Position numbers and translations under genes: made by a program. Below, one piece after another: positions 16,839 to 46,249 of a stretch of DNA of 64,000 nucleotides. This DNA comes from Candidatus Bipolaricaulota bacterium (GTDB taxonomy: Bacteria > Bipolaricaulota > Bipolaricaulia > UBA7950 > UBA9294). Positions within the stretch are counted from its first letter, which is position 1, and each line of letters starts with the position of its first letter. The stretch covers positions 18,107 to 82,106 of the forward strand of contig JAUWPW010000001.1 in assembly GCA_030611415.1 (NCBI GenBank), given 5' to 3'. The notes beneath the pieces are model-generated. The model did no database searches. It was not told the DNA's origin and saw only the letters and a list, made by a program, of their open reading frames with translations.

Positions 16839-16904
16839 GACTCTGGACACTGGACTCTGGGCTGGTTTTCTGTTACGCATCACTCATCACTGATTACACG
16901 TCAC
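16839..16904 (-). repeat. Dispersed intergenic repeat family 'A', copy 3 of 4, minus orientation
   Basis: The reverse complement reads GTGACGTGTAATCAGTGATGAGTGATGCGTAACAGAAAACCAGCCCAGAGTCCAGTGTCCAGAGTC. It matches the copies at 21763, 46180 and 41363 and lies 12 nt 3' of the stop of the CBS gene (16915..17349). Confidence 0.8.
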
Positions 16905-16914
16905 TGTTTTCGGC

Positions 16915-17349
16915 TCACAGAAGGTGATGAAGCAAATCGATTCTTTTAACCACCCCCACCAATCGCCTTTCTGCATCAATCACCGGAAGGCTTTTCAGGT
17001 TCTTACGAATGATTAGATCCGCCGCTTGCAGGTCATCATCATCAACTTCTACACAAATGACGTCAGAATGCATATGTCTTTCAACTGGATCATCTGCTAT
17101 CTGGCCAAGCTTCTTGGCAAACTGGTTCATGTCGGGAATAAACGAAGTACTATGAAGCATCTCGAAGTACCCTGGAAGAGCGGCTTTGATGATATCTTTC
17201 TCGGAGATGAACGCGATAAGTTTCCCCTCCTCATCGACTACTGGCATATTGGACATCTTTGCGCTGTCAAGAATAAAGATCAGTTCTTTGACCGGAATAT
17301 CCTTCTCAACCGATGTCACGTCTCTTGTCATGATCTCTCCGACCTTCAC
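16915..17349 (-). CDS. CBS-domain pair protein
   Basis: Two CBS motifs in a 144-aa protein (VKELIFILDSAKMSNMPVVDEEGKLIAFISEKDI and SDVICVEVDDDDLQAADLIIRKNLKSLPVIDAERRLVGVVKRIDLL). Confidence 0.75.
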   Translation of the reverse strand: MKVGEIMTRDVTSVEKDIPVKELIFILDSAKMSNMPVVDEEGKLIAFISEKDIIKAALPGYFEMLHSTSFIPDMNQFAKKLGQIADDPVERHMHSDVICVEVDDDDLQAADLIIRKNLKSLPVIDAERRLVGVVKRIDLLHHLL

Positions 17350-17358
17350 GTCTCCTCC

Positions 17359-18318
17359 TTATATCCGATTAAGGGTTACGTTTGCCATCTCACGCTCGAT
17401 TTTCCCCATATCCCTACAGACCTTTTCGCGACTCTCCGCACTTACTATTCCCGCCGCAAGTCCAAAACGAAGCGCTTGCTCGATTCCCGCACCATTGTAA
17501 ATCTGGTAGATAACCCCTCCAAGCAGAGCATCGTCTGCGCCAACCAGATTCCTAAACTGCGTTGTCTGCACTCGCGCGTTGATCTCCCAAATGCTATCTC
17601 GAGTTATAACAATATCACCGGTTACCTCATGCGAGACAATCATTATCTCAACTCCGTCCTGCACTATCCGTTTACCGGCACTGATAATCTCTTCCTTTGT
17701 TCCCAGCTTCATCCACTCAAAAGACAGATGCTCGCGTGTATCCGGTTTAACAATGTTAGGCGCGGCAGGCAGACAGTGTGTAAGGCAACTTGCTCCAGCA
17801 CTAATAGCCACTTTGACACCCGCCTGCTTGGCCAGTTTAGCCAACTCATAGTAAAAGGCTAGATTAACCTGAGGAGGAAGACTTCCCGCAAGAACAACCC
17901 AATCAGCAACTTTGAGCATCCGCCGGTAGCGACGCATGAAGCGGTTCATTTCACCCTCAGCTACAGCAATACCCGGTCCATCTATCAGAATGGGAATATG
18001 CTCACGTCCATGCTCCAAGACTGTCAGGTTGATTCGTGTTTCACCACTTCCCATCCAGACGAAGTTGGTTGTTACCCCTTCATCGCGTAGAGCGCGCACC
18101 ACTACATGCCCGGTGTATCCTCCAACAAATCCCATAGCAATATTCTCTAACCCCATCCGTGCTAGAAAGATAGAAATATTGATCCCCTTGCCTCCTGCCG
18201 AAATGTCGCTATCAGTAGCACGGGTTAGATACTCCTCTTGAGTTTCCTTCCCGATTTTCAAGCGATCAACCCAGTAAATCTCATCGACTGATGGATTCGG
18301 CGTAACCGTAACGATCAT
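17359..18318 (-). CDS. PfkB-family sugar-phosphate kinase (1-phosphofructokinase/tagatose-6-P kinase-like)
   Basis: MIVTVTPNPSVDEIYWV N-terminus typical of FruK/LacC, plus a GADDALLGG anion-hole motif. Confidence 0.75.
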   Translation of the reverse strand: MIVTVTPNPSVDEIYWVDRLKIGKETQEEYLTRATDSDISAGGKGINISIFLARMGLENIAMGFVGGYTGHVVVRALRDEGVTTNFVWMGSGETRINLTVLEHGREHIPILIDGPGIAVAEGEMNRFMRRYRRMLKVADWVVLAGSLPPQVNLAFYYELAKLAKQAGVKVAISAGASCLTHCLPAAPNIVKPDTREHLSFEWMKLGTKEEIISAGKRIVQDGVEIMIVSHEVTGDIVITRDSIWEINARVQTTQFRNLVGADDALLGGVIYQIYNGAGIEQALRFGLAAGIVSAESREKVCRDMGKIEREMANVTLNRI

Positions 18319-19634
18319 GAGGCTCCTCTTGTCACCGCAGATACAAGCACTCTGCCAGCTAGTGAAGCGGCGGAAGCTGCTTCAATACGCACAGGAACAA
18401 ATGTCCCCACCCTAACTTCTCCGTCCAGGATCACCATGCGGTGATCATCGCTCCTCCCGCAAGACATCCCCTTGCGGTTTCTTCCATCCACAAGCACCTC
18501 TATTTTATCACCAATTCGCTTATGATTCTCCTCAAGTGCGATTTCCCTCTGGCGAATGAGAATCTCCTGCAATCGCTCGTTTTTTGCCTCAATTGGCACG
18601 TCGTCAGCAAGCTTAGCGCTTCGCGTTCCTGGCCGGGGCGAATACTTAGCCACAAAGACTGTCCCAAAGCGACCTTCGTCCAGCAGTTCAAGTGTGGCAC
18701 GGAAGTCCCCCTCTGTCTCCCCTGGATGGCCGACAATCAGATCAGTGGTAATATTTATGCCCTTCACAAGTCTTCGTGCCTTGTTCACGATCGACAGGAA
18801 ATCACTGCGTGTGTAGCCACGATTCATCAACGAGAGAACGCGATCGCTCCCTGATTGACAGGCAAGATGAATGTGGTTGCAGATGCTCTCGTGCTCTGCG
18901 ATCGTTCGAATCACCCTTTCGGTCATGTCTCGCGGATGAGAACTAGTGAAGCGAACACGCGGAATTCCAACATCTGCTACTTGGGCAAGTAACTCGGCAA
19001 ATCCTCCGTACTCAGTCCGGTCCCTTCCGTAAGAATCGACATTCTGTCCCAGGAGAAGAACCTCCTTACAACCACTATCGGCCAAGGCCCTTACCTCGGC
19101 AAGGATTTTTCCTGGTTCGCGGCTACGTAGAGGACCACGGCTGTAAGGAACGATACAATAGGAGCAAGAATTTGAGCACCCTTTAGTGATATTTACCATG
19201 GCTTTAATCGAGCCTTCACGTTTAAAAGGAATCTCATCGATAGTGAGCGGAGAGGGAAGATAAGCAATTCGTTTTCCCTTTCTCTCGACTTCCAGCAAGA
19301 GCCGAGGAAGGTTGTCTAGCCCGGCAACTCCAAATAGAAAGTCGACCACGGGAAAACGCCTTAACAAGGATTCACCGCGTACTTGTGCTATACACCCTCC
19401 TATGCCAAACAGAACTCGCTTCTGAGACTTAAGTTGTTCAACATTACCCAGCTGTCCGTATACCTTCTCTTCAGCTTTCTGTCTGACCACACAAGTGTTA
19501 AACAGAACCACGTCAGCATCCGCAAACGAATTGGTAATCCTAAATCCTGCCCGTTCAAGGACACCAGCGATCCCCTCTGACTGGTGGAAGTTCATTTGGC
19601 AACCCCAGGTTTTGATATATACACTTTCGTTCAT
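18315..19634 (-). CDS. miaB: tRNA-i6A37 methylthiotransferase
   Basis: N-terminal MTTase motif WGCQMN, radical-SAM CSNSCSYC, C-terminal TRAM domain. The start is chosen at MNESVYIKTWGCQMN. The stop overlaps the pfkB-like start (ATGA). Confidence 0.85.
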   Translation of the reverse strand: MNESVYIKTWGCQMNFHQSEGIAGVLERAGFRITNSFADADVVLFNTCVVRQKAEEKVYGQLGNVEQLKSQKRVLFGIGGCIAQVRGESLLRRFPVVDFLFGVAGLDNLPRLLLEVERKGKRIAYLPSPLTIDEIPFKREGSIKAMVNITKGCSNSCSYCIVPYSRGPLRSREPGKILAEVRALADSGCKEVLLLGQNVDSYGRDRTEYGGFAELLAQVADVGIPRVRFTSSHPRDMTERVIRTIAEHESICNHIHLACQSGSDRVLSLMNRGYTRSDFLSIVNKARRLVKGINITTDLIVGHPGETEGDFRATLELLDEGRFGTVFVAKYSPRPGTRSAKLADDVPIEAKNERLQEILIRQREIALEENHKRIGDKIEVLVDGRNRKGMSCGRSDDHRMVILDGEVRVGTFVPVRIEAASAASLAGRVLVSAVTRGAS

Positions 19635-19808
19635 ATCGATGTTAACAAATATAGCGAAAAACGAAACATCGATCAAACCTGAATAAAGTGCATCGATCAT
19701 AAACAAATTTGCCCCGAAGCCTTATCCCATATCATGTCCAGAATATGGTCAGGAGCTGCTTCCTTTATCACGAAAAGATCGAACATCATTACAGCACTGT
19801 TAACAGGA

Positions 19809-19836
19809 TTGACCCTGAAGTTGATACCGGTATAAT
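19809..19836 (+). promoter_or_regulatory. Putative sigma-70 promoter for the aconitase gene
   Basis: TTGACC-N16-TATAAT read directly. An AGAGGTGA RBS and the start codon cluster follow within 20 nt. Confidence 0.4.
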
Positions 19837-19853
19837 TGCCAGTTTGAGAGGTG

Positions 19854-21758
19854 ATGACTGTGTCCAAAACAATAACAGAGAAAATCCTTTCGCGGCACAT
19901 ACAGAAAGGGAGCTTAAGCAAAGGAACAGAAATCGGAATACGGATCGATCACTGTCTAACACAAGACTCTACTGGGACAATGGCATGGCTCGAGTTTGAG
20001 TCACTTGGCTTAGAACGCGTCAAGGCAGAGCTTGTTGTCTCCTATTCGGATCATACCTCACTAGGATTCAAAGGCGAATCAACCGATGACCATGCCTTTC
20101 TTAAAACAATAGCCTCGCACTACGGAGCCAAGTTCTCCAAGAACGGGAATGGCGTATGTCATCAGCTTCACTACGAACGTTTCGGCGCACCGGGCAAAAC
20201 ATTGCTCGGTTCTGATTCTCACACACCAACGGCTGGCGGACTGGGAATGCTTGGGATTGGTGCTGGTGGAATGGATGTAGCCGTAGCAGCAGGAGGAGGG
20301 CTTTTTCATCTCGTTGTCCCCAAGGTGATGCGAATAGTCCTCAAGGGCAAGCTTTCATGGGGAGTGGCAGCAAAAGACATTGCGCTAGAGATTCTACGGC
20401 GAATCTCGGTAAAGGGGGGAGTGGGTTACTTTATCGAGTTTGCTGGCCGCGGTATAAAGAACCTTTCAGTACCACAACGAGCAACAATTACTAACATGTG
20501 CACGGAAACCGGAGCAACTTCTTCAATCTTCCCCTCAGACAAGGTAACACGGGAATTCTTACGTATGCAAGGTCGCGAGGAAGACTGGGCCAAGCTTATT
20601 CCAGACGCCAATGCCAAATACGATAAGAGCTTAGAAATCGATCTTTCTTCATTGAAACCGCTTATAGCAATGCCAGGAATGCCAGACAATGTCTATGATA
20701 TTGAAGAAGTTCTAGGAACAAAGATCGATCAGGTCTTCATAGGTTCTTGTACCAATGGAGGTTATCACGACATCAAGATTGTCGCAGAGATGCTCAAGGA
20801 CAAGCATGTCTCTACAGACTTCGATGTGATTGTCTCTCCCGCGTCCAAGCAGGCATGGGAAATGTTGTTAGAGGATGGAAGTTTCTTCGATCTTACCAAA
20901 GCTGGAGTACGCATGATCGAACCTGGCTGTAATGCATGCATCGGAATTGGCTTTGTCCCCGGATATGAGCATTTGTCCCTGCGTACGGTAAATCGGAACT
21001 GGAAGGGGCGTGGGGGAAACAAGTTCGGGAAGATCGCGCTCTGTAGCCCTGAGGTAGCAGCTGCATCTGCACTTGCCGGACGAATAGCTGATCCACGCGA
21101 GCTTCCACCGGTGAAAATCAAGATCGATCGCCTCATCATAGATGACTACCTCATTATAAAACCATCTGGAGCGGGGAGTCCCATCAGACGCGCACCAAAC
21201 ATCGTTCAACTGGAGCCACAAGAACCACTTACTCCGCTTCTTGAAGGAGAAGTACTGCTCAAGCTAGGCGACGGTATCTCGACTGATGACATCCTCCCGG
21301 CAGGACCGCTCACACAGCACCTACGCAGCAACCTTCCCGAGATAGCTAAGTTTACCTTCTACTATGAGGACAAGAGCTTCGCGGAGCGCGCCCTGGAAAA
21401 GGGTGGTGGATTCATCGTTGGAGGCGACAACTACGGGCAGGGTTCATCGCGCGAGCACGCAGCCCTTACTCCATGGCAACTAGGAATCAAGGCGGTTTTC
21501 GCGGAGAGCTATGCTCGCATCCACCGCGCCAACCTGATTAACGTAGGGATCATCCCATTTACTTGCGATACAAATACCCTGGATCAGGGAGATCGACTGG
21601 AGGTAGACGTATCTGACCTCAACCGGGAATTGAGCGTTGACAACAAGACAAAAGGAAGCACCATTAAGATACGTCACGATCTTTCTCCGCGTGAAATCGA
21701 GATGATAGGAACCGGTGGCCTACTCGCCTATACTGCACAAAAACACAGTGAAAAGTAA
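19854..21758 (+). CDS. Aconitase-family hydratase, ~635 aa (Aquifex-type putative aconitate hydratase)
   Basis: Aconitase catalytic domains plus a C-terminal swivel domain (GDNYGQGSSREHAALTPWQLGIKAV). Its length matches the small bacterial/archaeal AcnA-like family. The start is ambiguous among GTG 19851, ATG 19854 and GTG 19860. Confidence 0.75.
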   Translation: MTVSKTITEKILSRHIQKGSLSKGTEIGIRIDHCLTQDSTGTMAWLEFESLGLERVKAELVVSYSDHTSLGFKGESTDDHAFLKTIASHYGAKFSKNGNGVCHQLHYERFGAPGKTLLGSDSHTPTAGGLGMLGIGAGGMDVAVAAGGGLFHLVVPKVMRIVLKGKLSWGVAAKDIALEILRRISVKGGVGYFIEFAGRGIKNLSVPQRATITNMCTETGATSSIFPSDKVTREFLRMQGREEDWAKLIPDANAKYDKSLEIDLSSLKPLIAMPGMPDNVYDIEEVLGTKIDQVFIGSCTNGGYHDIKIVAEMLKDKHVSTDFDVIVSPASKQAWEMLLEDGSFFDLTKAGVRMIEPGCNACIGIGFVPGYEHLSLRTVNRNWKGRGGNKFGKIALCSPEVAAASALAGRIADPRELPPVKIKIDRLIIDDYLIIKPSGAGSPIRRAPNIVQLEPQEPLTPLLEGEVLLKLGDGISTDDILPAGPLTQHLRSNLPEIAKFTFYYEDKSFAERALEKGGGFIVGGDNYGQGSSREHAALTPWQLGIKAVFAESYARIHRANLINVGIIPFTCDTNTLDQGDRLEVDVSDLNRELSVDNKTKGSTIKIRHDLSPREIEMIGTGGLLAYTAQKHSEK

Positions 21759-21762
21759 AGCG

Positions 21763-21960
21763 TGATGGGTAATGAGTGATGCGTAACAGAAAGCCAGTCC
21801 ATAGTCCAAGGTCCAGAGTCGAGAAACGGTGATGGGTAAAGAGTAACAAGTGAAAGGCCAGGAACTGAAAAACAATGACTGATGGCTGAGAGCTGACCGC
21901 TGATAGCTGTTTGCTGATAACTGTAATGAGTGATGGGCAAGGAGACGTAAATAGTAACCA
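21763..21960 (+). repeat. Dispersed repeat family 'A', copy 1 (core 21763-21820) plus degenerate tandem reiterations of the GTGATGGGTAA box
   Basis: GTGATGGGTAATGAGTGATGCGTAACAGAAAGCCAGTCCATAGTCCAAGGTCCAGAGTC starts 5 nt after the aconitase stop. Further GTGATGGGTAAAGAGTAACA, GAGCTGACCGCTGATAGCTG and GTAATGAGTGATGGGCAAGGAG modules follow. Confidence 0.8.
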
Positions 21961-22062
21961 GTAATGTGCCTTCGCGATAGACGGCAAGGAGTCAATCGTC
22001 TAGCACCTCGTCCAAAGAGGAGGGTCGTTATTAGAGGGGTGTGCTCTTCCCTCGCCTAACTG

Positions 22063-22091
22063 TTGACAGACATTCACTAATAAGTTATTAT
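22063..22091 (+). promoter_or_regulatory. Putative sigma-70 promoter of the IclR gene
   Basis: TTGACA-N17-TATTAT read directly. Confidence 0.45.
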
Positions 22092-22107
22092 GCCCACATA
22101 CTGAGAA

Positions 22108-22132
22108 CGTGTTCCCAGGATATGAGAACACG
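22108..22132 (+). promoter_or_regulatory. Inverted repeat CGTGTTC-N11-GAACACG between promoter and IclR start, a candidate autoregulatory operator
   Basis: Perfect 7-bp inverted repeat flanked by GAGAAC direct repeats, 19 nt upstream of the start codon. Confidence 0.35.
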
Positions 22133-22150
22133 ACCTAGAGGCGAGCAGGC

Positions 22151-22900
22151 TTGAACACGCTGGAAAAATGCGTCAGAATTTTGACTCTATTTAGCGAGAC
22201 TAAGCCCACAGCAACTGTCTCGTACATTGCGAAGCAACTTGGGCTTCCCACCAGCACGATTTACCGCTATATCGCTATGCTAAAGCAAAGCGGGCTGATC
22301 GAACAAACGGGCAAGGCAGGAATGTACTGCCTAGGCACAAAGATCCTGGAGCTTGCCCACAATGTTCCCAAAAAGAGCCTACAAGAAACTTCTCTTCCTA
22401 TTATGGGTCAGCTATCAAGGGAGACAGGAGAGACCGTTACTCTCACTGGACTACGCGAGCATGATGGGATTTGTCTAGAGAAAGCGGATGGACACCATGC
22501 TTTCCGTGTCTCCTATGAACGCGGAACCACCTTTCCCTTGCATGCTGGAGCATCTGGCAAGGTTCTTCTCGCCTATCTCGATCCACAGAAACAAGACCAA
22601 ATCATCAGAAAATTGAAATACGACAAATTCTCCGAGACTACAATTACGGAACCCAAGCGATTGAAAGCTGAAATTGCAGCAATCAAGAAGCAGGGGTTTG
22701 CGCTAAGTAATGGAGAGATCATCCGCGGAACCTACGGCATCGCGGCCCCCATTTTCTCGCTGTCTAGGAATGTCATTGCCGCCCTGAGCATCTCTGCACC
22801 AAACCACCGTCTAGAAGAAAAACAACGAAAACAAATGGCCCATTTGATAGTAGCGGCAGCTGGAAAGATCACGGATGAACTTGCTTTATATGAGGTGTAA
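22151..22900 (+). CDS. IclR-family transcriptional regulator
   Basis: N-terminal HTH (KPTATVSYIAKQLGLPTSTIYRYIAML) and a C-terminal IclR effector domain, 249 aa. Confidence 0.8.
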   Translation: MNTLEKCVRILTLFSETKPTATVSYIAKQLGLPTSTIYRYIAMLKQSGLIEQTGKAGMYCLGTKILELAHNVPKKSLQETSLPIMGQLSRETGETVTLTGLREHDGICLEKADGHHAFRVSYERGTTFPLHAGASGKVLLAYLDPQKQDQIIRKLKYDKFSETTITEPKRLKAEIAAIKKQGFALSNGEIIRGTYGIAAPIFSLSRNVIAALSISAPNHRLEEKQRKQMAHLIVAAAGKITDELALYEV

Positions 22901-22950
22901 AAACCTTTAGAAACTAAACCTGGAAAGAAAAAGGAGGATCAATCTCAATC

Positions 22951-24267
22951 ATGACCAAGGAAAGCTCCAGCATACCCAAGAGTGGTGACTCGATCGAATT
23001 GACTGGCCAAGGGCTAAGTGTTCCCAACTATCCTATTATCCCCTATATCCGAGGGGATGGAATCGGGACAGACGTGACACCAGTGATGCTAAAGGTGGTC
23101 GATGCCGCCGTTGCGAAAGCATACGGCAGCAAGAAGAAGATTCAGTGGCTCAAGGTATGGGCTGGCGATGAAGCGATCGCGAAAAATCACTCGGAACTAT
23201 CTGAAAACGAAATCAAGGAAATCCCCGCAGAAGAAAGACAGAAGCTTTACTTGCCGGATGAAACAACTGCAGCCATCCGTAAGCACTTGGTTGCCATTAA
23301 AGGTCCACTGACAACACCAGTAGGAGGGGGAATCCGCAGCTTAAACGTAGCACTACGTATAGTGCTTGATCTGTATGCCTGTGTTCGTCCAGTCCATCAT
23401 ATCGGCACCCCAGCACCTGTAAAACGGCCGCAAGATCTGGATATCGTATTCTTCCGCGAGAATACAGAGGATGTCTACTCCGGAATTGAGTGGCGTGCCG
23501 GTACACCGGCCGCAAAGAAGGTCATAAGCTGGCTGGAACAGGAAATGGGTGTCACCAGCATACGTTTTACGGAGATGTGCGGAATCGGAGTCAAGCCGGT
23601 CAGCGAACAGGGAAGCAAGAGGCTCATTCGCGCAGCAATTGAATATGCGATCAAGAACAACAGAACATCAGTCACCATGGCACACAAGGGAAACATCATG
23701 AAATTCACCGAAGGCGCATTCCGTGATTGGGGATACGAAATTGGTGAACAATATGCACAGATTATTACCGAACAGGCTCTGTTTGAGACCTATGGCGGAA
23801 CAGTTCCTTCGGGAAAGATCGTGCTGAAAGACAGAATCGCAGACCAGTTTTTCCAGCAGATGCTGCTTAGGCCAACGGAATACGACGTAGTTGCCACACT
23901 AAACCTAAATGGTGACTACATGTCCGATGCGGCAGCAGCACAAGTAGGAGGACTAGGAGTCGCGCCAGGCGCAAATATCAACTACAAGACAGGTTGTGCC
24001 ATCTTTGAGGCAACACACGGAACAGCTCCCAAACATGCGGGGAAGAACGAAGTAAACCCGGGTAGTATTATCCTATCCGCAAGTGAAATGCTTCAATACA
24101 TGGGATGGAACGAGCCCGCTAGACTAATCCTTAGCGGAATCGTAGGCGCAATTTCCTCTAAACGGGTCACCTATGACTTGGAACGACAAATGGAGGGAGC
24201 AACACTACTTTCCTGCTCAGAATTTGGTGACGAAATCATCAGCAGAATGCAAGAAGAAGGTGAATAA
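22951..24267 (+). CDS. icd: NADP-dependent isocitrate dehydrogenase (prokaryotic homodimeric type)
   Basis: [25 protein letters not shown] and [19 protein letters not shown] motifs. An AAAGGAGGA RBS sits upstream. Confidence 0.88.
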
Positions 24268-24270
24268 CTA

Positions 24271-27398: not shown

Positions 27399-27509
27399 CA
27401 AGACACAGGCAGCCGGCAAGTCATGGCTTGCTATCTGACTATCGCTTGCCGGTTGTCTTTTGTTTCACTTCATCTTATCATAAGTGCCATCGGGATAGAA
27501 GGTGATGAG

Positions 27510-33507: not shown

Positions 33508-33508
33508 C

Positions 33509-34051: not shown

Positions 34052-34055
34052 AAAC

Positions 34056-34580: not shown

Positions 34581-34589
34581 ACTAAAAAG

Positions 34590-34617
34590 GGGGATCTACA
34601 AACCATGAGAGATCCCC
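34590..34617 (-). terminator. Rho-independent terminator for gdh, a hairpin shared with the convergent NUDIX gene
   Basis: GGGGATCT-N12-AGATCCCC is a perfect 8-bp stem. It is followed on the minus strand by TTTTT. Confidence 0.6.
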
Positions 34618-34652
34618 TACGCTCTTCCTAGGTTCACGATGCAAGAGATAGG

Positions 34653-35909: not shown

Positions 35910-36045
35910 GCTTAAGACCTCCTAAAGTCTTTAAGAACTATTCGTCAGTATCAGAAAGTGAAAGAATCCCCTTTCTATTTGGCAACAAAATTATACAGGC
36001 CCCCTCAGACCGTGCAAGTCATATCCGGTTAGTATTTTCCTCTGT

Positions 36046-36873: not shown

Positions 36874-36906
36874 CGCAACACCTCCTTCCCGAAACCTTGT
36901 TGCAAT

Positions 36907-39038: not shown

Positions 39039-39070
39039 GCTTGTCCTCCTGTCAGCTCTTATAAGGATTT

Positions 39071-39115
39071 GGGGTTCATTGGGTTCGTAGGGTTTGTTGG
39101 GTTCGTAGGGTTCAT
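39071..39115 (-). repeat. Array of five 9-bp tandem repeats (minus-strand reading ATGAACCCT-ACGAACCCA-ACAAACCCT-ACGAACCCA-ATGAACCCC)
   Basis: Read directly. It lies between the four-helix-bundle gene stop and the manC start. It is the reverse complement of the arrays at 39504 and 41490. Confidence 0.85.
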
Positions 39116-39119
39116 GAAG

Positions 39120-39488
39120 CTAACCACTCCCTTTTAGGTAACTCATAAAACGAGATAGCTGCCTGGCTACTACCTCTAACCTTTCATAAGTACTATCAAA
39201 AGCTTCCTGTGATATGTAGTCTTGGTCAAGAGCAGTATAAAGCTGCGTCTGAACCTCGGCTACCGAGCCTTTGGAGATAAATAGGAATTGGATAAACTCT
39301 TTGTTCGAGTGTCTCGAAAAGCCTTCAGCTATATTGCTGGGTATTGAGACCACCGCTCGGCGGATCTGATCACATAGGGCATAGTCTCTGGAGAAGGTCC
39401 CAACCGAAGAAGCTTGATAAACGGCATTTACTACGTCTCGTGCTTTCTGCCACACCTCTAGATCTTCAAATCTCTCAACAGTTGCCAT
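39120..39488 (-). CDS. Four-helix-bundle protein (TIGR02436 / 23S rRNA intervening-sequence protein / Avd-like family)
   Basis: MATVERFEDLEVWQKARDVVNAVYQ...AVVSIPSNIAEGFSRHSNKEFIQFLFISKGSVAEVQTQL is the diagnostic family signature. A GAGGAAGGG RBS sits upstream. Confidence 0.8.
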   Translation of the reverse strand: MATVERFEDLEVWQKARDVVNAVYQASSVGTFSRDYALCDQIRRAVVSIPSNIAEGFSRHSNKEFIQFLFISKGSVAEVQTQLYTALDQDYISQEAFDSTYERLEVVARQLSRFMSYLKGSG

Positions 39489-39503
39489 TCCCTTCCTCTA
39501 ACT

Positions 39504-39584
39504 CAATGAACCCCATGAACTCTATGAACTCTATGAACTCAATGAACTCAATGAACTCCACGAACTCCACGAACCCAACAAACT
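39504..39584 (+). repeat. Array of nine 9-bp tandem repeats (AATGAACCC CATGAACTC TATGAACTC x2 AATGAACTC x2 CACGAACTC CACGAACCC AACAAACTT)
   Basis: Read directly. It occupies the whole interval between the pgm stop and the start of the four-helix-bundle gene, which is that gene's promoter region. Confidence 0.85.
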
Positions 39585-39594
39585 TTCTTCCTTT

Positions 39595-40965
39595 TCATTT
39601 GGAACGCTCAAACAGCTTGCTCACTTCGGCCAGCTTTTCCTCCATCAACTCTTCTGTCTTAGCCTCCAGATTCAATCGTAGCAAGGGCTCAGTGTTAGAA
39701 GCTCGTAGGTTGAACCACCAATCTTCATAATCAACGGAAATGCCATCGAGATAAGTTATCCTGCCGTTTGCAAACTGTTTTTTCACCTTATCCATGACCA
39801 GCCGCTGATCAACAACAGGAAAGTTTATCTCTCCTGATTGAGCATACTTGCGCAATGGCTGAACCAGGGCTTTCAAGGTTTTTCCTGCATCTGCCACAAT
39901 TTGCAGTAGTTCCAACATTGCGAAGATGCCACTCTCACAACAAAAGAAATCTGAGAAGTAAAAGTGGCAAGAGAGCTCTCCGGCAAACAAGCCTCCCTGA
40001 TCACGCATGATTTGCTTTATAAAGGAGTGTCCTACTCGTGTTCTTACTGGACATCCACCTTGAGCCCGTATAATTTCGGGAACAACACGACTTGAGCGCA
40101 GGTCATAAAGGATGGTGCCTGAACGTTTTTCCCGCAAAACACGCTCAGCAATCAGCCCAGTAAGTAGATCTCCGGGAATCAACTTGCCAGTTTCATCAAT
40201 AAAACCAACACGATCGCCATCGCCATCAAACGCAATCCCGATCGAACCAGGGAGATTTGCCATGACCTTTTTTACATCTTGTAGATTCTCCTCTTTGAGT
40301 GGATTTGCCTCATGGTGCGGAAAATTACCATCAAGATCGAAGAAGAGATTCTCATGGAGGATATTCTGCCCTTTGAGCACCTCTGGCAAGATCGCTCCAG
40401 CCATTCCATTCCCAGCATCAATAACTACAGGAGTGTCCATCCTTACTGAGAACCGCCGGCCAAAGAAATCACAATAACGCTGCTTCAAATTCTCACAACG
40501 AATTGAACCAATCTCTGCAGCCTTGTTCATCGAACCATCTTCCGCAAGGTGGCAGATCTTGCCCAGCCCCGTAGCAGTACTGATCGGGATGGCTTGGTCA
40601 CGTACCAACTTGAACCCGTTATACCCTGCTGGATTATGTGAAGCAGTAATCATAGCCCCGCCAGCGGCACGGAGAACGTTCACAGCAAAATAGAGCATTG
40701 GAGTGGTACAAAGGCCGATATCAATAACGCTAACCCCTGCAGTATTCAATCCTTTCGCCAGTGCAGCGAACAGCGGGGCTGAACTATTACGCATATCTCT
40801 ACCCACGACAACCGGTCTTCCAGATCGAAGGTACCCGCTTCTGGCAAAAGCCCAACCTATACGGAAGGCAGCATCTTCGTCAAGTTGGGAAGGATATAGG
40901 CCACGGATATCGTATGCCGTGAAGATTGTAGAATCTATCAAGCTCTTAGGGTTCGTGAAATTCAT
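39595..40965 (-). CDS. Phosphoglucomutase/phosphomannomutase
   Basis: Active-site serine loop TASHNPAGYNGFK, a Mg-binding DGDGDR motif, 456 aa. Confidence 0.85.
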   Translation of the reverse strand: MNFTNPKSLIDSTIFTAYDIRGLYPSQLDEDAAFRIGWAFARSGYLRSGRPVVVGRDMRNSSAPLFAALAKGLNTAGVSVIDIGLCTTPMLYFAVNVLRAAGGAMITASHNPAGYNGFKLVRDQAIPISTATGLGKICHLAEDGSMNKAAEIGSIRCENLKQRYCDFFGRRFSVRMDTPVVIDAGNGMAGAILPEVLKGQNILHENLFFDLDGNFPHHEANPLKEENLQDVKKVMANLPGSIGIAFDGDGDRVGFIDETGKLIPGDLLTGLIAERVLREKRSGTILYDLRSSRVVPEIIRAQGGCPVRTRVGHSFIKQIMRDQGGLFAGELSCHFYFSDFFCCESGIFAMLELLQIVADAGKTLKALVQPLRKYAQSGEINFPVVDQRLVMDKVKKQFANGRITYLDGISVDYEDWWFNLRASNTEPLLRLNLEAKTEELMEEKLAEVSKLFERSK

Positions 40966-41086
40966 TGGATTGGTAGGGTTACCTCCTGATTTGTGATCGA
41001 TAGCTCGCTAAGGAAAGATACTTGGCACCTTTGTTTTCACCCTGTTTCCTGTTTTCCTCCGCGACCTCTGTGTCCTCTGCGGTTAA

Positions 41087-41168
41087 GTGTCTTTGGCAGA
41101 TTGGACAGAAGACGGATAATCTCCAGGGCAAATTCCTTTGTCCGCTTTTCTAGATCTTGTCTATTCAT
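41087..41168 (-). pseudogene. Truncated remnant (N-terminal ~27 codons) of a second four-helix-bundle family gene
   Basis: MNRQDLEKRTKEFALEIIRLLSNLPKT matches the alternative N-terminal signature of TIGR02436 proteins. The reading frame then runs into unrelated Arg/Gly-rich sequence and a stop. No continuation appears in other frames. Confidence 0.5.
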
Positions 41169-41180
41169 TGTTGATGCACC

Positions 41181-41210
41181 AATTCGCAATACGCAATCCG
41201 CATTCCGCAA
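41181..41210 (-). repeat. Four tandem heptamers (minus strand ATTGCGG-AATGCGG-ATTGCGT-ATTGCGA) 13 nt upstream of the remnant start
   Basis: Read directly as TTCGCAAT ACGCAAT CCGCATT CCGCAAT on the plus strand. Confidence 0.6.
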
Positions 41211-41242
41211 TTGCCTCTGCTGTCCCTGTTTTCTCTCTGGAT

Positions 41243-41319
41243 GCCGGATCAAGTCCGGCATGACGAAATACATCGTCATTCCGGCGAACCCTGGATCGGG
41301 GTCCAGGGCAGGCGCCGGA
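41243..41319. other. Cluster of three adjacent perfect hairpins (possible structured RNA or attenuator/terminator element)
   Basis: Hairpins are GCCGGA-tcaag-TCCGGC, ATGACG-aaatacat-CGTCAT, and TCCGGCG-aa-[CCCTGGA-tcgggg-TCCAGGG]-cag-CGCCGGA (a nested stem-loop). Confidence 0.4.
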
Positions 41320-41362
41320 ATCCAGCGTAGTAGTAGCTCTACGTTAGTCATTACTGTCTTTC

Positions 41363-41431
41363 GACCTTGGACTTTGGACATTGGACTGGTTCTATCTTAC
41401 TCATCACTCATTGCAGCTATCAGCGGTCAGC
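41363..41431 (-). repeat. Dispersed repeat family 'A', copy 4, minus orientation
   Basis: The reverse complement reads GCTGACCGCTGATAGCTGCAATGAGTGATGAGTAAGATAGAACCAGTCCAATGTCCAAAGTCCAAGGTC. It shares the GCTGACCGCTGATAGCTG module with the extension of copy 1. Confidence 0.75.
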
Positions 41432-41439
41432 TTTCAGCT

Positions 41440-41630
41440 CGTGATTCCTTACTCAACCAATCGACCAATCTCGTACTCAACTGCTTCACCCAACGAACTC
41501 AATGAACCCTACGAACCCTTGTTCCCATTCAACCAGTCAACCAATCAACTATTCAACTCGCCTTTTCTCGGCTCCCGACTATGTTTTCAACTCAACGAAC
41601 TCAACGGACTCAACGGACTCAACAGACTCA
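41440..41630 (+). repeat. Degenerate 9-bp periodic region containing AACGAACTC-AATGAACCC-TACGAACCC (41490-41516) and CAACGAACT-CAACGGACT-CAACGGACT-CAACAGACT (41593-41628)
   Basis: The 17-mer ATGAACCCTACGAACCC at 41498-41514 matches the reverse complement of 39099-39115. It lies between the pfkA stop and the family-A repeat. Confidence 0.75.
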
Positions 41631-41663
41631 TTACCTATCACGCGTTACTCATCGCCCACTACT

Positions 41664-42665
41664 TTAATTAGCTAGCTTATACACAAGGCGGTAGATCTCA
41701 AGATTGACGTTTCGCCCGTCCTTACTTAGCTCTGTAAACGGAATTGTCTGCACTCCCTGATCAACAAGCGCAGTCATTACTCCAGCAGTTCCATCGGCAA
41801 GCAAATCAACAGCGGCTTCACTCAAACGACAGGCAAGGATGCGGTCAAACGCAGAGGGCGAGCCTCCTCGCTGTAAGTGACCAAGGATAGTCAAGCGTGT
41901 CTCTATTGTACCTGTGTCGTTTAGGTATCTACTGACCAAGACGCCAGCCGATCCTTCTTCTTTCTTCTTACCTTGAGGCTCTCTATGGGGGGTAAATCCT
42001 TCAGAGACAACTATAATAGAGTGATGTTTCCCTTTAGCTACTCCTTGCTCTACCAATGCTGTGACGTCTTCCAGTGATAGGGAAACCTCAGGGATAAGAA
42101 CAATCTCCGCACCACCGGCAAGCCCACCCATCAGGGCGATGTATCCGGAATTCCGCCCCATGACTTCAACGACAAAGGCACGCTCGTGAGAGACAGCGGT
42201 ATCACGAATACGGTTGAGTGATGCCACCACCGTGTTTAGTACTGTGTCCACCCCGATCGCCATCGCTGTCCCGTAGATATCATTATCAATCGATGCAGGA
42301 ATCCCTACTGTAGGAATACCCTGTTCCTGCAGCCAACGCGCTCCTTGAAGGGAGCCATTTCCACCAATAACAATTACTCCATCAATTCTCCAGTTACTAA
42401 TGGTATCAAGCGCATGTTCCTGCCCCTTCTTTGTGAGGAAGGCAGCCGAGCGAGCAGTATGCAAGAATGTTCCGCCGCGCTCAATCACTCCACCAACCGC
42501 TCGATTGTCAAGTGATAACAGATCTCCTTCGATCAGGCCAGCAAATCCTCGACTTACTCCGAACATCTCCAGTCCAAGCGAACAACCACAGCGGACAGCA
42601 GCACGAATTGCCGCATTCATCCCAGGACTATCGCCACCGCTTGTCAACACCGCAATACGCGACAC
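41664..42665 (-). CDS. pfkA: ATP-dependent 6-phosphofructokinase
   Basis: MSRIAVLTSGGDSPGMNAAIRAAVR and the GGDGS and MGR motifs, 333 aa. Confidence 0.88.
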   Translation of the reverse strand: MSRIAVLTSGGDSPGMNAAIRAAVRCGCSLGLEMFGVSRGFAGLIEGDLLSLDNRAVGGVIERGGTFLHTARSAAFLTKKGQEHALDTISNWRIDGVIVIGGNGSLQGARWLQEQGIPTVGIPASIDNDIYGTAMAIGVDTVLNTVVASLNRIRDTAVSHERAFVVEVMGRNSGYIALMGGLAGGAEIVLIPEVSLSLEDVTALVEQGVAKGKHHSIIVVSEGFTPHREPQGKKKEEGSAGVLVSRYLNDTGTIETRLTILGHLQRGGSPSAFDRILACRLSEAAVDLLADGTAGVMTALVDQGVQTIPFTELSKDGRNVNLEIYRLVYKLAN

Positions 42666-42783
42666 GGTAAATGAACCTCCTTATTCTCTTACAGTGTAAC
42701 TCATCGACGCTTGGTGGGGAAGGATTACACACTTTCCTTCCTAAGACAGGAAGAGTAGAATTAATACAAGAGAGGTGAGGTAG

Positions 42784-43950
42784 TTGATTAAACGATCAAT
42801 TATGAAAAAAGCATTGGTGGTATTGGGACCAATCATCATTCTGGTCATTACCCTTGGTGTCAATGGAAATCAGACAATAGATAGCGGGTTTTTCTCTCCC
42901 TTATTCGAGGTCTACCAGTACATTCAGGACTATTTCTACAACCCAGAGCAAATCAACGATCAAGAAGCCCTGTACGGCGCAATGAGGGGAATGGTCGAAC
43001 AGCTTGATGATCCGTACAGCGAATTCCTCAACCCTGAGGATTACCAGCATTGGGAACAAAGCCTAGAAGGAAAATTCAGCGGAGTAGGAATCGAGATCAC
43101 AATCAAGGATGAAACACTTACCGTTATAACACCACTTGTTGGAACACCTGCCGAGCAGGCTGGAGTGTGTGCAGGGGACCAGATCCTGGAGATTGACGGT
43201 GAGCCTACTGAAGGTATTACCCTCAGCACCGCAGCCAGGAAAATCCGTGGAGAGGCAGGTACAAGCGTTTCTCTTCTCATACAACACAAAGATGGTACAC
43301 AGGAAGAAATTGAGATCGTGCGAAAGATAATCGTAGTCAAGTCAGTGACAAGTGAACTTGTGGGAGAAGGAAGGATTGCTTACATCCGCATCTCGCGCTT
43401 TGACAGTGATGCCACTATTAATCTTGACACCGCCCTTAGCGAATTCAATCTGGAGAACTTAGATGGGATGATACTCGATCTGCGAAACAACCCTGGTGGA
43501 TTGCTAAAAGAAGCAATTTCTGTCTCCAAGCGATTTGTAGATCAAAACGTAATAATAGTCTCCACAAGAGGAAGGGTTGCTGGAAAGGAGCAATTCTGGT
43601 CAACGGGAAATCTGATCCCTAACCTTCCGCTCGCGGTACTGATCAACGGTGGAACTGCGAGTGCAGCTGAAATAACCGCGGCAGCTATTCGCGACCATGA
43701 GATGGGCATTCTGATCGGGGAGTGTTCCTTTGGCAAAGGGTTAATCCAGCGCGTATTCAAATTGCCAGACGGTTCAGCCCTTAAACTCACCACCGGAGAG
43801 TATTTCACCCCATTAGGGCAGGCAGTCAATAAAGTAGGACTGTCTCCAGACATCAGCATAGATCAAGGAGAAGATCCAATCGAGGCCGCGATCACCTGGA
43901 TCAATTCACATGTCGGGGCGCGAATGCCAATTGCCCTCGGCAAGAGCTAA
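42784..43950 (+). CDS. ctpA: Carboxyl-terminal processing protease (S41 family) with PDZ domain
   Basis: N-terminal signal/TM, a PDZ domain (GIEITIKDETLTVITPLVGTPAEQAGVCAGDQILEIDG) and catalytic Ser/Lys motifs (INGGTASAAEI and CSFGKG). Confidence 0.8.
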   Translation: MIKRSIMKKALVVLGPIIILVITLGVNGNQTIDSGFFSPLFEVYQYIQDYFYNPEQINDQEALYGAMRGMVEQLDDPYSEFLNPEDYQHWEQSLEGKFSGVGIEITIKDETLTVITPLVGTPAEQAGVCAGDQILEIDGEPTEGITLSTAARKIRGEAGTSVSLLIQHKDGTQEEIEIVRKIIVVKSVTSELVGEGRIAYIRISRFDSDATINLDTALSEFNLENLDGMILDLRNNPGGLLKEAISVSKRFVDQNVIIVSTRGRVAGKEQFWSTGNLIPNLPLAVLINGGTASAAEITAAAIRDHEMGILIGECSFGKGLIQRVFKLPDGSALKLTTGEYFTPLGQAVNKVGLSPDISIDQGEDPIEAAITWINSHVGARMPIALGKS

Positions 43951-43952
43951 GT

Positions 43953-44951
43953 ATGAAAACTTCTGTAATAGGCGCGGGAGGATGGGGAACAGCATTTGCC
44001 CGGCTTCTCGCTACAAGCAGGCATACGGTAACCTTATGGGTCCGCAATCCGATTCAAGCCAAAGAAATTGACAGGTTGCGAGAAAACAGAAAATACCTCC
44101 CTGGGGTCCTTCTTCCGAAGCAAGGCCTCAATATTACCACTTCTCTTTCCGAGGCATCCACAGCTAAGCTAATCATACTTGCTGTCCCTTCATTTGCCAT
44201 GGGCGATCTGTTGGACAAACTTGTCCCACTTGTAGAAGAGCAAAAAGTATTCATCAATCTAGCTAAGGGAATCGACCACGCAACGGAAAAACCCATGTCC
44301 GAGCTGATAAGAAGCAAGATCGACGCAGAGGCTGTATTTACCCTCTCTGGCCCAAGCCATGCCGAAGAGGTAGGCCGCGATATGCCCACAGCAGTTGTCC
44401 TCGCTGGAGCCAATCTTAGCCTAGGAGAAGAAATCCAACATTTCCTTTCTAGTTCCCGCTTCCGCGTTTACTTGACGGATGACATTCGCGGGGTGGAACT
44501 TTGTGCAACAGTAAAGAACATAATCGCTCTAGCTGGTGGTGTCTCCGATGGCCTCGGCTACGGAGACAATAGCCGCGGGGCACTCATCTCGCGTGGCCTA
44601 GCAGAAATGGTTCGGTTCGGCCGGGTGTTTGGAGCCAGACAAGAGACCTTCTTCGGCCTATCTGGCTTGGGAGATCTAGTTGCTACATGTACGAGCAAGC
44701 ATAGCCGTAACCGATTCGTTGGCCAACAACTGGGGATGGGAATCCCTCTCGACGAAATCCTTGCAAAGATGGACAAGGTTGTAGAAGGCGTGTACGCCAC
44801 CGAAATCGTCCATTCCATGGCTAGATCAAGAGGGATAGAGATGCCAATTACTGACGGGGTATGGCGGCTGCTCCGCAAGGAGGTATCCCCATCAGCCTTG
44901 GTAGACGAGATCATGACTAGACCCCCAAAACGAGAGGGAATCAGACAGTGA
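43953..44951 (+). CDS. gpsA: NAD(P)H-dependent glycerol-3-phosphate dehydrogenase
   Basis: MKTSVIGAGGWGTAFA Rossmann motif and a GpsA C-terminal domain, 332 aa. Confidence 0.85.
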   Translation: MKTSVIGAGGWGTAFARLLATSRHTVTLWVRNPIQAKEIDRLRENRKYLPGVLLPKQGLNITTSLSEASTAKLIILAVPSFAMGDLLDKLVPLVEEQKVFINLAKGIDHATEKPMSELIRSKIDAEAVFTLSGPSHAEEVGRDMPTAVVLAGANLSLGEEIQHFLSSSRFRVYLTDDIRGVELCATVKNIIALAGGVSDGLGYGDNSRGALISRGLAEMVRFGRVFGARQETFFGLSGLGDLVATCTSKHSRNRFVGQQLGMGIPLDEILAKMDKVVEGVYATEIVHSMARSRGIEMPITDGVWRLLRKEVSPSALVDEIMTRPPKREGIRQ

Positions 44952-46183
44952 ATAGTTATGATGTAGCGGTAATAGGTGGCGGACCCATTGGGGCAGTAGC
45001 TGCACGCTATGCGGCTGCGACAGGAGCGCGTACCCTACTCGTTGATCAAGGTGACGGCTCTTGTGAGCCGGCTTGTTGTGCCGGGTTAGTGAGCCCACGG
45101 ACGCCTTCTTTGCTCGGGATTTCATCAACAGGTCTCCTAAGAGAAATCCATGGGGCAATTATCCATTCTCCAACAGGGAAACAGACTGAGATCCTCTCCA
45201 AAAAAGTGAAGGCAATCGTTCTCGACCGCAGCGCGCTCAATCGTGAACTAGTCAAGCTTGCTGCACAAGCAGGTGTAGAGGTAAGGCATCACACCCGTGC
45301 TGCTATCACTGACCAAGCAAAGCTCCAACTCAGTGAGCAGAACAGACAGTATGAAGCCAAGGCTCGTGTAGTGATCGGGGCAGACGGCCCACGAAGCATG
45401 GTCGCTAGTCGCTTCTCCCTACCATCGCCACCAAGGTTCCTTGCAGCAGTACAGGCAACTATTGTACGAGAGGCGCGTGCCTCAGACATGGTAGAGATCT
45501 TCTTTGGAACGAAGATTGCTCCTGGATTCTTCGCCTGGGCGGTTCCAGCAAAGCAGGAACAGCTACGCGTAGGTCTTGCAGCTACTCAAGGCACCGACGT
45601 AAACACTCTGCTTAACAACCTCCTTAGTCAACACTTCCCCGGACAGGTGATTTCATATGTCGGCGGAATAATCCCCGTCGGAACTGCTGCCAAAACAACT
45701 ACCGACGGCGCTCTTATCGTAGGTGATGCCGCAGGTCAAGTAAAACCAACCTCAGGGGGTGGAATCTATACAGGAGGGTTATGTGCCAAAATAGCAGGAG
45801 AAATCGCAGGTTATGCCTCATTGGCAGAAAAGACTACAAACGAAACCCTCAAGGAATACGAGCACCGTTGGCAAGACAAGATTGGGAAGGAACTACGCTT
45901 TGGTCTTCTTGCCCATCGTGCCTTCTGTGGTCTCTCAGATGCTGAGATCGAAGCCGCACTGGCCATCATCAACCAACCTTCAATCCTACAGGCAATCACT
46001 GAATATGGAGATATTGATTATCCAAGTATGCTAGTAAGTTCGCTCCTCTCTCGCCAAGATCTGTGGCCAAGGCTCCTCTCCTTGATTCCTGCGCTCGGTG
46101 GATGGGAAAAGTTCGGAAACCTTGCCCAACTTGTTATCTCCTTAGAGCAACCAGGCCGGGGTCGTGAGCCAAAAAAACAGTGA
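44948..46183 (+). CDS. FAD-dependent geranylgeranyl reductase family oxidoreductase
   Basis: YDVAVIGGGPIGAVAARYAA is a GxGxxG FAD fold, and a GDAAG motif (LIVGDAAGQVKPTSGGGI) is typical of the ChlP/BchP/GGR family. A GTG start overlaps the gpsA stop (GTGA). Confidence 0.65.
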   Translation: MNSYDVAVIGGGPIGAVAARYAAATGARTLLVDQGDGSCEPACCAGLVSPRTPSLLGISSTGLLREIHGAIIHSPTGKQTEILSKKVKAIVLDRSALNRELVKLAAQAGVEVRHHTRAAITDQAKLQLSEQNRQYEAKARVVIGADGPRSMVASRFSLPSPPRFLAAVQATIVREARASDMVEIFFGTKIAPGFFAWAVPAKQEQLRVGLAATQGTDVNTLLNNLLSQHFPGQVISYVGGIIPVGTAAKTTTDGALIVGDAAGQVKPTSGGGIYTGGLCAKIAGEIAGYASLAEKTTNETLKEYEHRWQDKIGKELRFGLLAHRAFCGLSDAEIEAALAIINQPSILQAITEYGDIDYPSMLVSSLLSRQDLWPRLLSLIPALGGWEKFGNLAQLVISLEQPGRGREPKKQ

Positions 46184-46249
46184 TGAGTAATGGGTGATGC
46201 GTAAGATAGAAGCAGCCCAAAGTCCAACGTCCAAGGTCAGAGGTCAGAG
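46180..46249 (+). repeat. Dispersed repeat family 'A', copy 2
   Basis: GTGATGAGTAATGGGTGATGCGTAAGATAGAAGCAGCCCAAAGTCCAACGTCCAAGGTCAGAGGTCAGAG. The stop codon of the preceding gene (TGA 46181-46183) lies inside the first GTGATG box. Confidence 0.8.

Follow-up and report, generated by a model that had tools for sequence, protein, structure and literature searches.

The 64,000-nucleotide (nt) stretch of a Candidatus Bipolaricaulota contig analysed here (hereafter the window) contains four copies of a short repeat, all in sense orientation just behind genes. These copies are most likely neither transcription terminators nor purpose-built signals of the 3′ untranslated region (UTR). Each copy is built of two heptamer arrays, A (GTRATGN, as a rule closing with GTAA) and, beyond a spacer, B (GTCCARN). 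The copies belong to a family of modular short-tandem-repeat mosaics that is specific to this lineage of uncultured Bipolaricaulota. This A-B arrangement is most likely the leader and left arm, now or formerly, of promoter-less cassettes. We consider it somewhat probable that the four copies are derivatives or relics of small selfish cassettes of the STRR/TAACTGA heptamer-repeat kind, reduced to a solo arm and devoid of an open reading frame (ORF). A preliminary description of this DNA had argued against a passive selfish repeat, yet the evidence points to exactly such a repeat, which is dispersed, copy-pasted and decaying.

All four copies were confirmed, at 21762-21820 (+), 46180-46249 (+), 16839-16904 (-) and 41356-41412 (-). 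Both the A and the B halves were identified as arrays with a 7-nt period by Tandem Repeats Finder, which reported period 7 or 14 at 16839-16860, 21755-21786, 21879-21917, 41358-41387, 41414-41439 and 46217-46249. The tail had previously been read as GTCCAR hexamers and is actually built of GTCCARN heptamers. The spacer separating A from B was CAGAAAGCCA or GATAGAAsCA. With their linkers and flanking gene ends, the copies were composed as follows.

21748..21820 (+): copy 1 in its heptamer register, including the gene end; A array, spacer CAGAAAGCCA, B array
21762-21786 (+): strict A box of copy 1, GTRATGN heptamers
21797-21820 (+): B array of copy 1, GTCCATA GTCCAAG GTCCAGA GTC
46170..46249 (+): copy 2 with linker AAAAAACA, A array (GTGATGA GTAATGG GTGATGC GTAA), spacer GATAGAAGCA and B array (GCCCAAA GTCCAAC GTCCAAG GTCAGAG GTCAGAG)
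16839..16914 (-): copy 3 with linker GCCGAAAACA, A array (GTGACGT GTAATCA GTGATGA GTGATGC GTAA), spacer and B array
41356..41412 (-): copy 4, A-B unit with a short A (AATGAGT GATGAGT AA), spacer GATAGAACCA and B array (GTCCAAT GTCCAAA GTCCAAG GTCGAAA GAC)

The genes upstream of the copies encode an aconitase, a FAD oxidoreductase, a CBS-domain protein and a phosphofructokinase (pfkA). The aconitase stop codon lies 3 nt before the strict start of copy 1, which is 21762 and not 21763 as first given. The heptamer register begins earlier, at 21748, within the last codons of the gene, and the array thus supplies the TAA of the gene. Similarly, the TGA of the ORF at 44948-46183 falls inside the first GTGATGA unit of copy 2, as had been noticed before. 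Copy 3 begins 10 nt past the TGA of the CBS-domain gene, with its linker GCCGAAAACA directly 3′ of that codon. Copy 4 had been placed at 41363-41431 and treated as an exception to stop adjacency. Its A-B unit, at 41356-41412, is indeed 251 nt away from the pfkA stop, and the stretch up to 41439 is a separate array of GCTGAnn units (D array). A degenerate A-type array (AGTAGTG GGCGATG AGTAACG CGTGATA GGTAATG), however, begins directly 3′ of the pfkA TAA. Every copy in the window is intergenic, located between ORFs, and the downstream genes of all four are co-directional. The start codons of these genes are 56-411 nt away, with no consistent distance.

The resemblance among the copies is far beyond chance. 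The 25-nt opening box had three matches with up to 3 mismatches in the window where 0.00 were expected (none in 100 shuffles), and the tail AGTCCAAGGTCCAGAGTC had five where shuffles gave an expectation of 0.03. Pairwise identity among the four copies was 77-83% over 59-74 nt. An nhmmer profile made from the four copies recovered all of them in full, by construction (E 1e-16 to 1e-20), and gave weak partial matches to A arrays at 21921, 41654 and 21828. The sequence GCTGACCGCTGATAGCTG, earlier noted in the regions of copies 1 and 4, is common to both at 96% identity.

The earlier delimitation of a 65-70-bp element did not hold, as the A-B unit is the 5′ part of longer, hypervariable mosaics with 7-, 8- and 9-nt arrays and is not self-contained. 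In the window and in related loci (labelled by L-numbers; loci from related metagenome-assembled genomes, or MAGs, and from metagenomes) a recurring order was found: A, spacer, B, the linker GAAARACRG, further A-type units (A′), 8- and 9-mers (GTTGAGTnn, GGGTTCGTA), GCTGAnn and other modules. Genes in the related loci were called with our own codon-usage model, which reproduced one externally annotated locus, the sole external check. The mosaics around copies 1 and 4 include the following parts.

21821..21966 (+): remaining parts of the mosaic around copy 1; linker GAGAAACG, A′ (GTGATGG GTAAAGA GTAACAA), D array, A-type array
21885-21923 (+): D (GCTGAnn) array of the copy 1 mosaic
21924-21966 (+): further A-type array of the copy 1 mosaic
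22063-22091: promoter-like site of the IclR gene, beyond the copy 1 mosaic
41413..41663 (-): mosaic separating copy 4 from the pfkA stop; A-type, 9-mer, 8-mer, 9-mer and GCTGAnn arrays
41663-41629 (-): A-type array directly after the pfkA TAA
41630-41590 (-): 9-mers GAGTCCGTT
41557-41525 (-): 8-mers GTTGAATA
41518-41488 (-): 9-mers GGGTTCGTA
41439-41414 (-): GCTGAnn array, separate from copy 4
41238..41326 (-): dispersed palindromic module GCTGGATTCCGGCG...CGCCGGAATGACG...GTCATGCCGGACTTGATCCGGCATCCAG, embedded in the copy 4 mosaic
41180-41211 (-): CGGATTG heptamers after the palindromic module
41168-41040 (-): ORF of 43 codons beyond the CGGATTG heptamers

The palindromic module recurs in L001, L003, L005, L053, L098 and L101. 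Beside copy 3, a unit of about 47 nt (CAGGGCAGGCCCTGTTAAATACAAAGCAGAACAAGATTTCA; window 16790-16838, -) forms a variable block in front of the helicase gene. It is single in the window and in L070 (870-960) and tandemly duplicated in L002 (1290-1400). Among related loci, a non-repetitive 28-nt head, GGGAATTCCGGGGACGCATACCCCTAAATC, stood directly before the A array in 31 of 33 occurrences (for example L010 6175-6205, L037 5183-5209 and L048 14333-14359) and is absent from the window. Conservation ends upstream of this head, except in subfamilies with a longer head, GGGGTCAAGTCTTGCAAATGAACACCGCGGTG. By appearance, the head is either the end of an element or a site preferred as target, and in antisense copies (L010) it may be an upstream promoter element. 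A conserved protein C-terminus was considered for the head and discarded, as the upstream sequences, ORF lengths and stop distances were inconsistent.

Both large mosaics are closed to translation in all three sense frames. The copy 1 mosaic has 9, 8 and 6 sense stops per frame (23) and no antisense stops (0/0/0), and the pfkA mosaic has 12, 11 and 11 sense stops (34) against 1, 0 and 1 antisense (2). The sense strand of the mosaics is purine-rich and poor in C (13-21%). Three-frame closure arises because 7 mod 3 = 1, so that a heptamer bearing TGA or TAA closes all frames within three units. The box of stops, for which a selected trap had been proposed, thus need not have been selected for: a 7-nt period combined with a stop triplet is enough to produce it. 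Since the antisense strand has almost no stops, spurious antisense ORFs of 107 aa (21664-21987, -) and 170 aa (40993-41505, +) traverse the mosaics. Annotation is likely to list them, wrongly, as hypothetical proteins.

As RNA, the four copies were unstructured. On both strands they folded no better than dinucleotide shuffles (sense z +2.35, -0.49, -0.42 and +0.47), and copy 1 folded worse than all 200 of its shuffles. A terminator scan detected no terminator-like site (a G+C-rich hairpin followed by a U tract) within or directly behind any copy, and a promoter scan detected nothing in or behind the four copies. At thresholds up to E 1, searches of Rfam 15 matched nothing in 16500-22300 or 38900-46500, and only the six tRNAs reached the Rfam gathering score in the whole window. 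A transcription-termination or otherwise structured module, as suggested in the preliminary description, is therefore not supported, while its view that this is not a REP/BIME/ERIC-type repeat agrees with the lack of a palindrome and of any fold excess in the copies. Pairing of the GTCCAR units (GTCCAA/GTCCAG) with nearby upstream GACTCTGG segments, which had been proposed as a check, fails for the four copies and holds only in complete cassettes elsewhere. A reading of the A and GCTGA arrays as a box C (RUGAUGA)/box D (CUGA) kink-turn was also dropped because of inconsistent order and spacing: the D array precedes A in copy 4 but comes after A in copy 1.

None of the four copies holds a PF05635/23S_rRNA_IVP-type ORF, and no inverted partner array was found near these solo copies in the window. 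An intact cassette with both features is located elsewhere in the window, between the phosphoglucomutase and nucleotidyltransferase genes and co-oriented with them.

39072..39594 (-): intact cassette with 9-mer arms
39594-39489 (-): left arm, GAGTTCATN 9-mers
39120-39488 (-): four-helix-bundle ORF (PF05635, E 9e-37; TIGR02436, 6e-34)
39119-39072 (-): right arm, inverted GAACCCTAC 9-mers

The predicted RNA fold of this cassette closes across the ORF (z -3.36), and its 9-mers are of the same type as those in the copy 4 mosaic (87%). Cassettes with 9-mer arms were found in four other contexts (L115, L121, L124 and L125), and together with the window cassette their arm duplexes ranged from -60 to -101 kcal/mol, compared with -41 to -60 when shuffled. 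All seven cassettes examined were co-oriented with both neighbours. These seven mostly occupy sugar-nucleotide operons next to genes of toxin-antitoxin systems, and for the cassettes as a whole such operons, or those for polysaccharides, are a frequent setting. Left arms start 0-15 nt after the upstream stop, a placement like that of the four copies. The window contains no rRNA gene, and the cassettes sit between protein genes, not in 23S rRNA. An additional PF05635 ORF with inverted tandem-repeat arms is present in L119. Many close homologues were found on very short contigs, which assembly breaks at the arms would explain.

The B array itself also serves as such an arm. Three independent related loci show a B array as left arm and its inverted counterpart as right arm on either side of a PF05635 ORF of a second subfamily (MAIKRFEDIEAWK...); the ORF is intact in two of these loci, and the third is internally deleted. 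L130/L131 and L133 contain intact PF05635 ORFs of 119 aa with GTCCAAN arrays upstream and an inverted array directly after the stop (duplex energies -76 and -40 kcal/mol, respectively, against -48 and -27 when shuffled). In L094/L101 the last codons and the stop of a RuvX-like gene lie inside an A array, which is followed by A-B units, an ORF (PF05635, E 2e-13) and an inverted B array, and the fold again closes across the ORF (z -3.2). The PF05635 ORF starts 16-60 nt after A-B in L020, L080, L094 and L101. Of the 70 A-B clusters, five had an inverted B array on the downstream side and none had one on the upstream side. Physical linkage to four-helix-bundle genes is not general among A-B units, being confined to a minority of loci.

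A complete cassette consists of a B or 9-mer array placed directly behind a host stop and in the same orientation, a PF05635 ORF, and the same array inverted. In a read-through transcript the two arrays would pair into a long stem around the ORF, and this stem would probably be cut out by RNase III, as in the intervening sequences of 23S rRNA. Solo copies would be co-transcribed as unstructured 3′-UTR or intercistronic RNA. Spread would proceed by copy-paste of composite segments, possibly through transposition or conversion, followed by gain and loss of 7-nt units, and a sense copy could abut or replace the end of an ORF with no extension of the protein. The stop-adjacent and sense-biased placement would arise because sense stops end translation and because a cassette lacking a promoter must be read through from its host gene.

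Comparison with related loci showed that the copies are hypervariable and dispersed. Several of the contigs come from close strains or from the same species. Identity to the window was 97-98% in L070 and L053, 96.8% in L079 and about 90% in L098, L002 and L001. At the copy 3 site, L070 and L111 (97-98% identical) hold about 230 nt of extra sequence. In L070 this includes a second A-B-A′ block, 76 nt of which equal copy 1 of the window with one mismatch, and L070 further differs from the window at copy 3 by whole 7-nt units. L002 has other unit counts at this site. L113, whose aconitase protein is 93% identical, has no arrays there, only the linker GAAAACAG. At the copy 1 site in L053 (98%), the first 78 nt are identical to the window, after which about 390 nt of other modules replace those of the window, and L098 and L113 have quite different mosaics. 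At the copy 2 site, the ortholog L079 differs only by whole 7-nt units, lacking two A units and having three additional B units. Whole-unit changes fit slippage, whereas the identical composites at unrelated loci, together with blocks that are present or absent, require copying between loci.

In L001 (91% identical) a 700-nt mosaic (4898-5604) occupies a divergent promoter region where the window has none, and TAACTGA-like units were found in this mosaic only. Opposite this insertion, the window has the 12-nt direct repeat AGAGCGTGTAAG twice (1713-1736), which may be a footprint or a pre-existing duplication.

The family was also sought in related genomes, as had been recommended. The A-B pattern was present at 13 loci in three Bipolaricaulota MAGs and in 86 metagenome stretches. 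Close relatives of the aconitase also bear the label Candidatus Bipolaricaulota or Acetothermia. No such arrays were found in the 22 kb of a more distant Bipolaricaulota contig (L114). Similar A-B arrays occurred in Acidobacteriota, in a deltaproteobacterial MAG, and in Verrucomicrobiia and Chloroflexia contigs, which suggests horizontal spread or a shared generating process. The A-then-B arrangement was seen in Pyrinomonadaceae/Blastocatellia loci L007 (556-780), L009, L012, L016, L018 and L021. In Acidobacteriota the units are located at one conserved divergent spacer and are followed by an inverted B array about 100 nt away, and in the Verrucomicrobiia contig the arrangement forms a hairpin of B arrays. 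Outside Bipolaricaulota, the arrays of the Pyrinomonadaceae L007 type and of L014, L015, L024, L095 and L109 were considered real; DNA-pattern matches in other phyla in L011, L022, L023, L026, L054, L062, L068 and L106 were judged to be due to chance.

For orientation counts, loci were dereplicated by their flanks into clusters. In 27 clusters the array and its upstream gene shared a strand, and in 11 they were on opposite strands (p 0.014). The distance between the stop and the beginning of a sense copy was -18 to +17 nt in ten clusters, and copies that face a gene start are at least 59 nt away from it. Within 75 nt of 282 dereplicated gene ends, the first array was sense in 15 cases and antisense in four (p 0.019). 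A-type arrays came first in 12 of the 15 sense cases, a proportion that locus selection favours. The sense orientation noted earlier is thus a bias and not the strict rule it had been taken for. Well-supported antisense copies lie between long co-directional genes in L010 (two), L017 and L039 (one each), those in L010 being upstream of a TTGACA-17-TATAGT promoter. The orientation bias is real, and its strictness in the window is a small-sample or lineage effect. Avoidance of Rho by the C-poor sense strand is a possible cause of the bias.

Several observations weigh against an origin of the four copies from cassettes. The proposed descent of solo copies is deduced from the arrays that they share with cassettes, and 65 of the 70 A-B clusters have neither an inverted partner nor an ORF. 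The A array is missing before the B arm in L131 and L133 and also in the 9-mer cassettes, so the stop box is not a constant part. No target-site duplication and no clean element end were found in the filled-versus-empty comparison of the window with L113, where the linker GAAAACAG at the "empty" site may be what is left of an element and not its target. No enzyme that could mobilise the units, such as a transposase or reverse transcriptase, was identified. Where both neighbours were known and co-directional, 12 copies were sense and eight antisense (p 0.50). Two candidate remnants of the four-helix-bundle gene were rejected. The 43-codon ORF at 41168-41040, which by eye resembled the N-terminus of such a protein, had no Pfam or NCBIfam support. 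The same was true of an "IAEG" stretch in L053, which proved to be another repeat module.

The sense placement of the copies could instead reflect a selected 3′-UTR module, in which A would be a termination trap for any frame and B a site for a protein or RNase, or an aid to transcript ends or stability. It would account for the four copies and the pfkA A-type array all being sense and 0-12 nt from stops, and for the mostly sense (15 versus 4), mostly A-type (12/15, with the selection effect noted above) arrays at gene ends in general. Arrays also persist behind the same genes across about 10% divergence, as in L002 and L098 at the CBS and aconitase sites, and the unusually unstructured RNA of copy 1 (z +2.35) would suit a single-strand binding site. 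We nevertheless consider this explanation improbable. The copies have no hairpin, terminator or Rfam match, the 7-nt period accounts arithmetically for their stops in all three frames, and most gene ends in the window are without any array. Antisense copies between co-directional genes (two in L010, and L017 and L039) and the non-significant 12 versus 8 do not fit it, nor do copies in divergent promoter regions (L001). Unlike a tuned signal, unit numbers and modules vary among strains that are 97-98% identical, and the L113 site is empty.

Such variability is what would be expected of plain simple-sequence repeats (SSRs), grown in place by polymerase slippage, immobile, unrelated to cassettes and harmless in intergenic DNA. 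The strain differences in whole 7-nt units (copy 2 versus L079, copy 3 versus L070) agree with this. Heptamers are reported to be the commonest class of long SSR in bacteria, and slippage has been proposed for them (Mrazek 2007, as reported in PMC4679880 and PMC4692102), and the heptamer repeats of Xanthomonas and Nostoc are similarly stop-proximal and length-variable between close strains. Slippage alone is unlikely here, however, because composites of several arrays, spacers and linkers recur at unrelated loci, over up to 76 nt with one mismatch. It also leaves unexplained the 77-83% identity among the four copies, the recurring module order with the 28-nt head before A in 31/33, and the matched inverted array pairs that exactly flank an ORF. 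Least likely, and to be regarded with considerable doubt, are arrayed binding sites through which an RNA-binding protein of the S1, Csp or CsrA type, or a four-helix-bundle protein, would tune translation or stability of the flanking cistrons. [quoted passage not shown] In its favour, the units are periodic, unstructured, purine-rich and located in transcribed spacers, and TAACTGA-type units, for which an RNA-binding hypothesis was raised (PMC4679880), occur in the L001 mosaic. PF05635 relatives include the nucleic-acid-binding protein Avd of diversity-generating retroelements, to which the cassette ORFs had only a faint match (bAvd, E 0.09).

Catalogues of heptamer tandem repeats located behind genes of bacteria go back to 1990 (STRR, GGGAATC, TAACTGA), and we know of no accepted origin or function for them. 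STRR units include CCCCAGT, TTGGTCA and CAACAGT. Neither these units nor GGGAATC or TAACTGA are those of the four copies. Further examples are the Calothrix/Nostoc STRR unit GGGGA(C/T)T, the reverse complement of AGTCCCC, and the Xanthomonas GGGAATC repeat (Rehm et al. 2015, PMC4692102, on Xanthomonas and Nostoc). The known repeats are strongly intergenic, on the coding strand, and often 0-50 bp from the upstream stop or overlapping it. The arrays described here are like these repeats and the long SSRs of Mrazek et al. 2007 in having 7-nt tandem units, in being intergenic, stop-proximal, length-variable and sometimes arranged as inverted pairs, and in their function being unknown. They differ in their units (GTRATGN, GTCCARN and GCTGAnn), which do not form G-quadruplexes, in their host, Bipolaricaulota, and in being strung in a recurring order with spacers and linkers and copied as composites between loci.

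TAACTGA repeats are known from Beggiatoaceae, Cyanobacteria and Bacteroidetes and are closed in every forward frame and open in reverse, the stop property being named as a main factor controlling where they can sit (MacGregor 2015, PMC4679880). The present arrays share this closed forward and open reverse strand, as well as mixed assemblages of heptamers, 7-nt indels, the lack of predicted RNA structure or a known mechanism, and a patchy distribution across phyla. In Beggiatoaceae, TAACTGA repeats are mostly just upstream of start codons, whereas the A arrays here are just downstream of stops. Further differences are the units, the composite dispersed organisation and the inverted arms around an ORF.

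The closest likeness of the cassettes is to the 23S rRNA intervening sequences of Leptospira and Coxiella, which encode an S23p/PF05635 ORF, have stem-forming ends that RNase III cleaves, and are held to be selfish elements gained by horizontal transfer, the ORF often decaying (Warrier et al. 2016, PMC4990558). A PF05635 ORF and complementary ends are likewise found in the window cassette, L094, L115, L121, L124, L125, L131 and L133. Unlike intervening sequences, the cassettes sit between protein genes in operons and not in helix 45 or 25 of 23S rRNA, and tandem arrays of 7- or 9-nt units take the place of unique inverted repeats as their arms. Cleavage of the cassettes by RNase III is putative. 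The four copies differ also in having neither an ORF nor a partner arm. REP, BIME, REPIN and MITE elements resemble the A-B unit in being short, dispersed, non-coding, intergenic, often behind genes, and polymorphic for presence or absence. In contrast to these, the A-B unit is internally tandem-repetitive and lacks a palindrome, terminal inverted repeats and any target-site duplication that could be seen. The present family is set apart by its units, its host phylum, its composite dispersed organisation and the use of arrays as arms around PF05635 ORFs. The literature searched yielded no paper linking PF05635 genes to tandem repeats, which does not prove novelty.

A bolder form of the cassette explanation can be put forward only tentatively, and we think it rather less than likely. 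The cassettes would be an undescribed class of promoter-less selfish element, the mRNA counterpart of the 23S intervening sequence, whose array arms would release the ORF or cap the host mRNA. The A array would then be a frame-independent stop module for landing on ORF ends and would exclude ribosomes from the stem, and the STRR and TAACTGA repeats would be footprints of the same process. In either form, the cassette explanation provides a testable origin for at least part of the heptamer repeat class, as arms or relics of selfish cassettes riding on host transcripts. In practice, the mosaics break assemblies, give rise to false ORFs of 100-170 aa on the antisense strand, and change the final codons and stops of real genes. 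Masking is therefore advised.

Two further features of the window were recorded. A cluster of six tRNA genes occupies 4819-5377 (+), and two of them are identical over the 22 nt at their 5′ end. From 19851 to 27398 (+), genes for an aconitase, an IclR regulator, an isocitrate dehydrogenase and two ATP-citrate-lyase-like proteins stand in a row. The ATP-citrate-lyase-like domains were ATP-grasp/citrate-binding and CoA-ligase/citrate-synthase, according to Pfam calls on the syntenic L113, and these genes may represent a reductive tricarboxylic acid cycle module.

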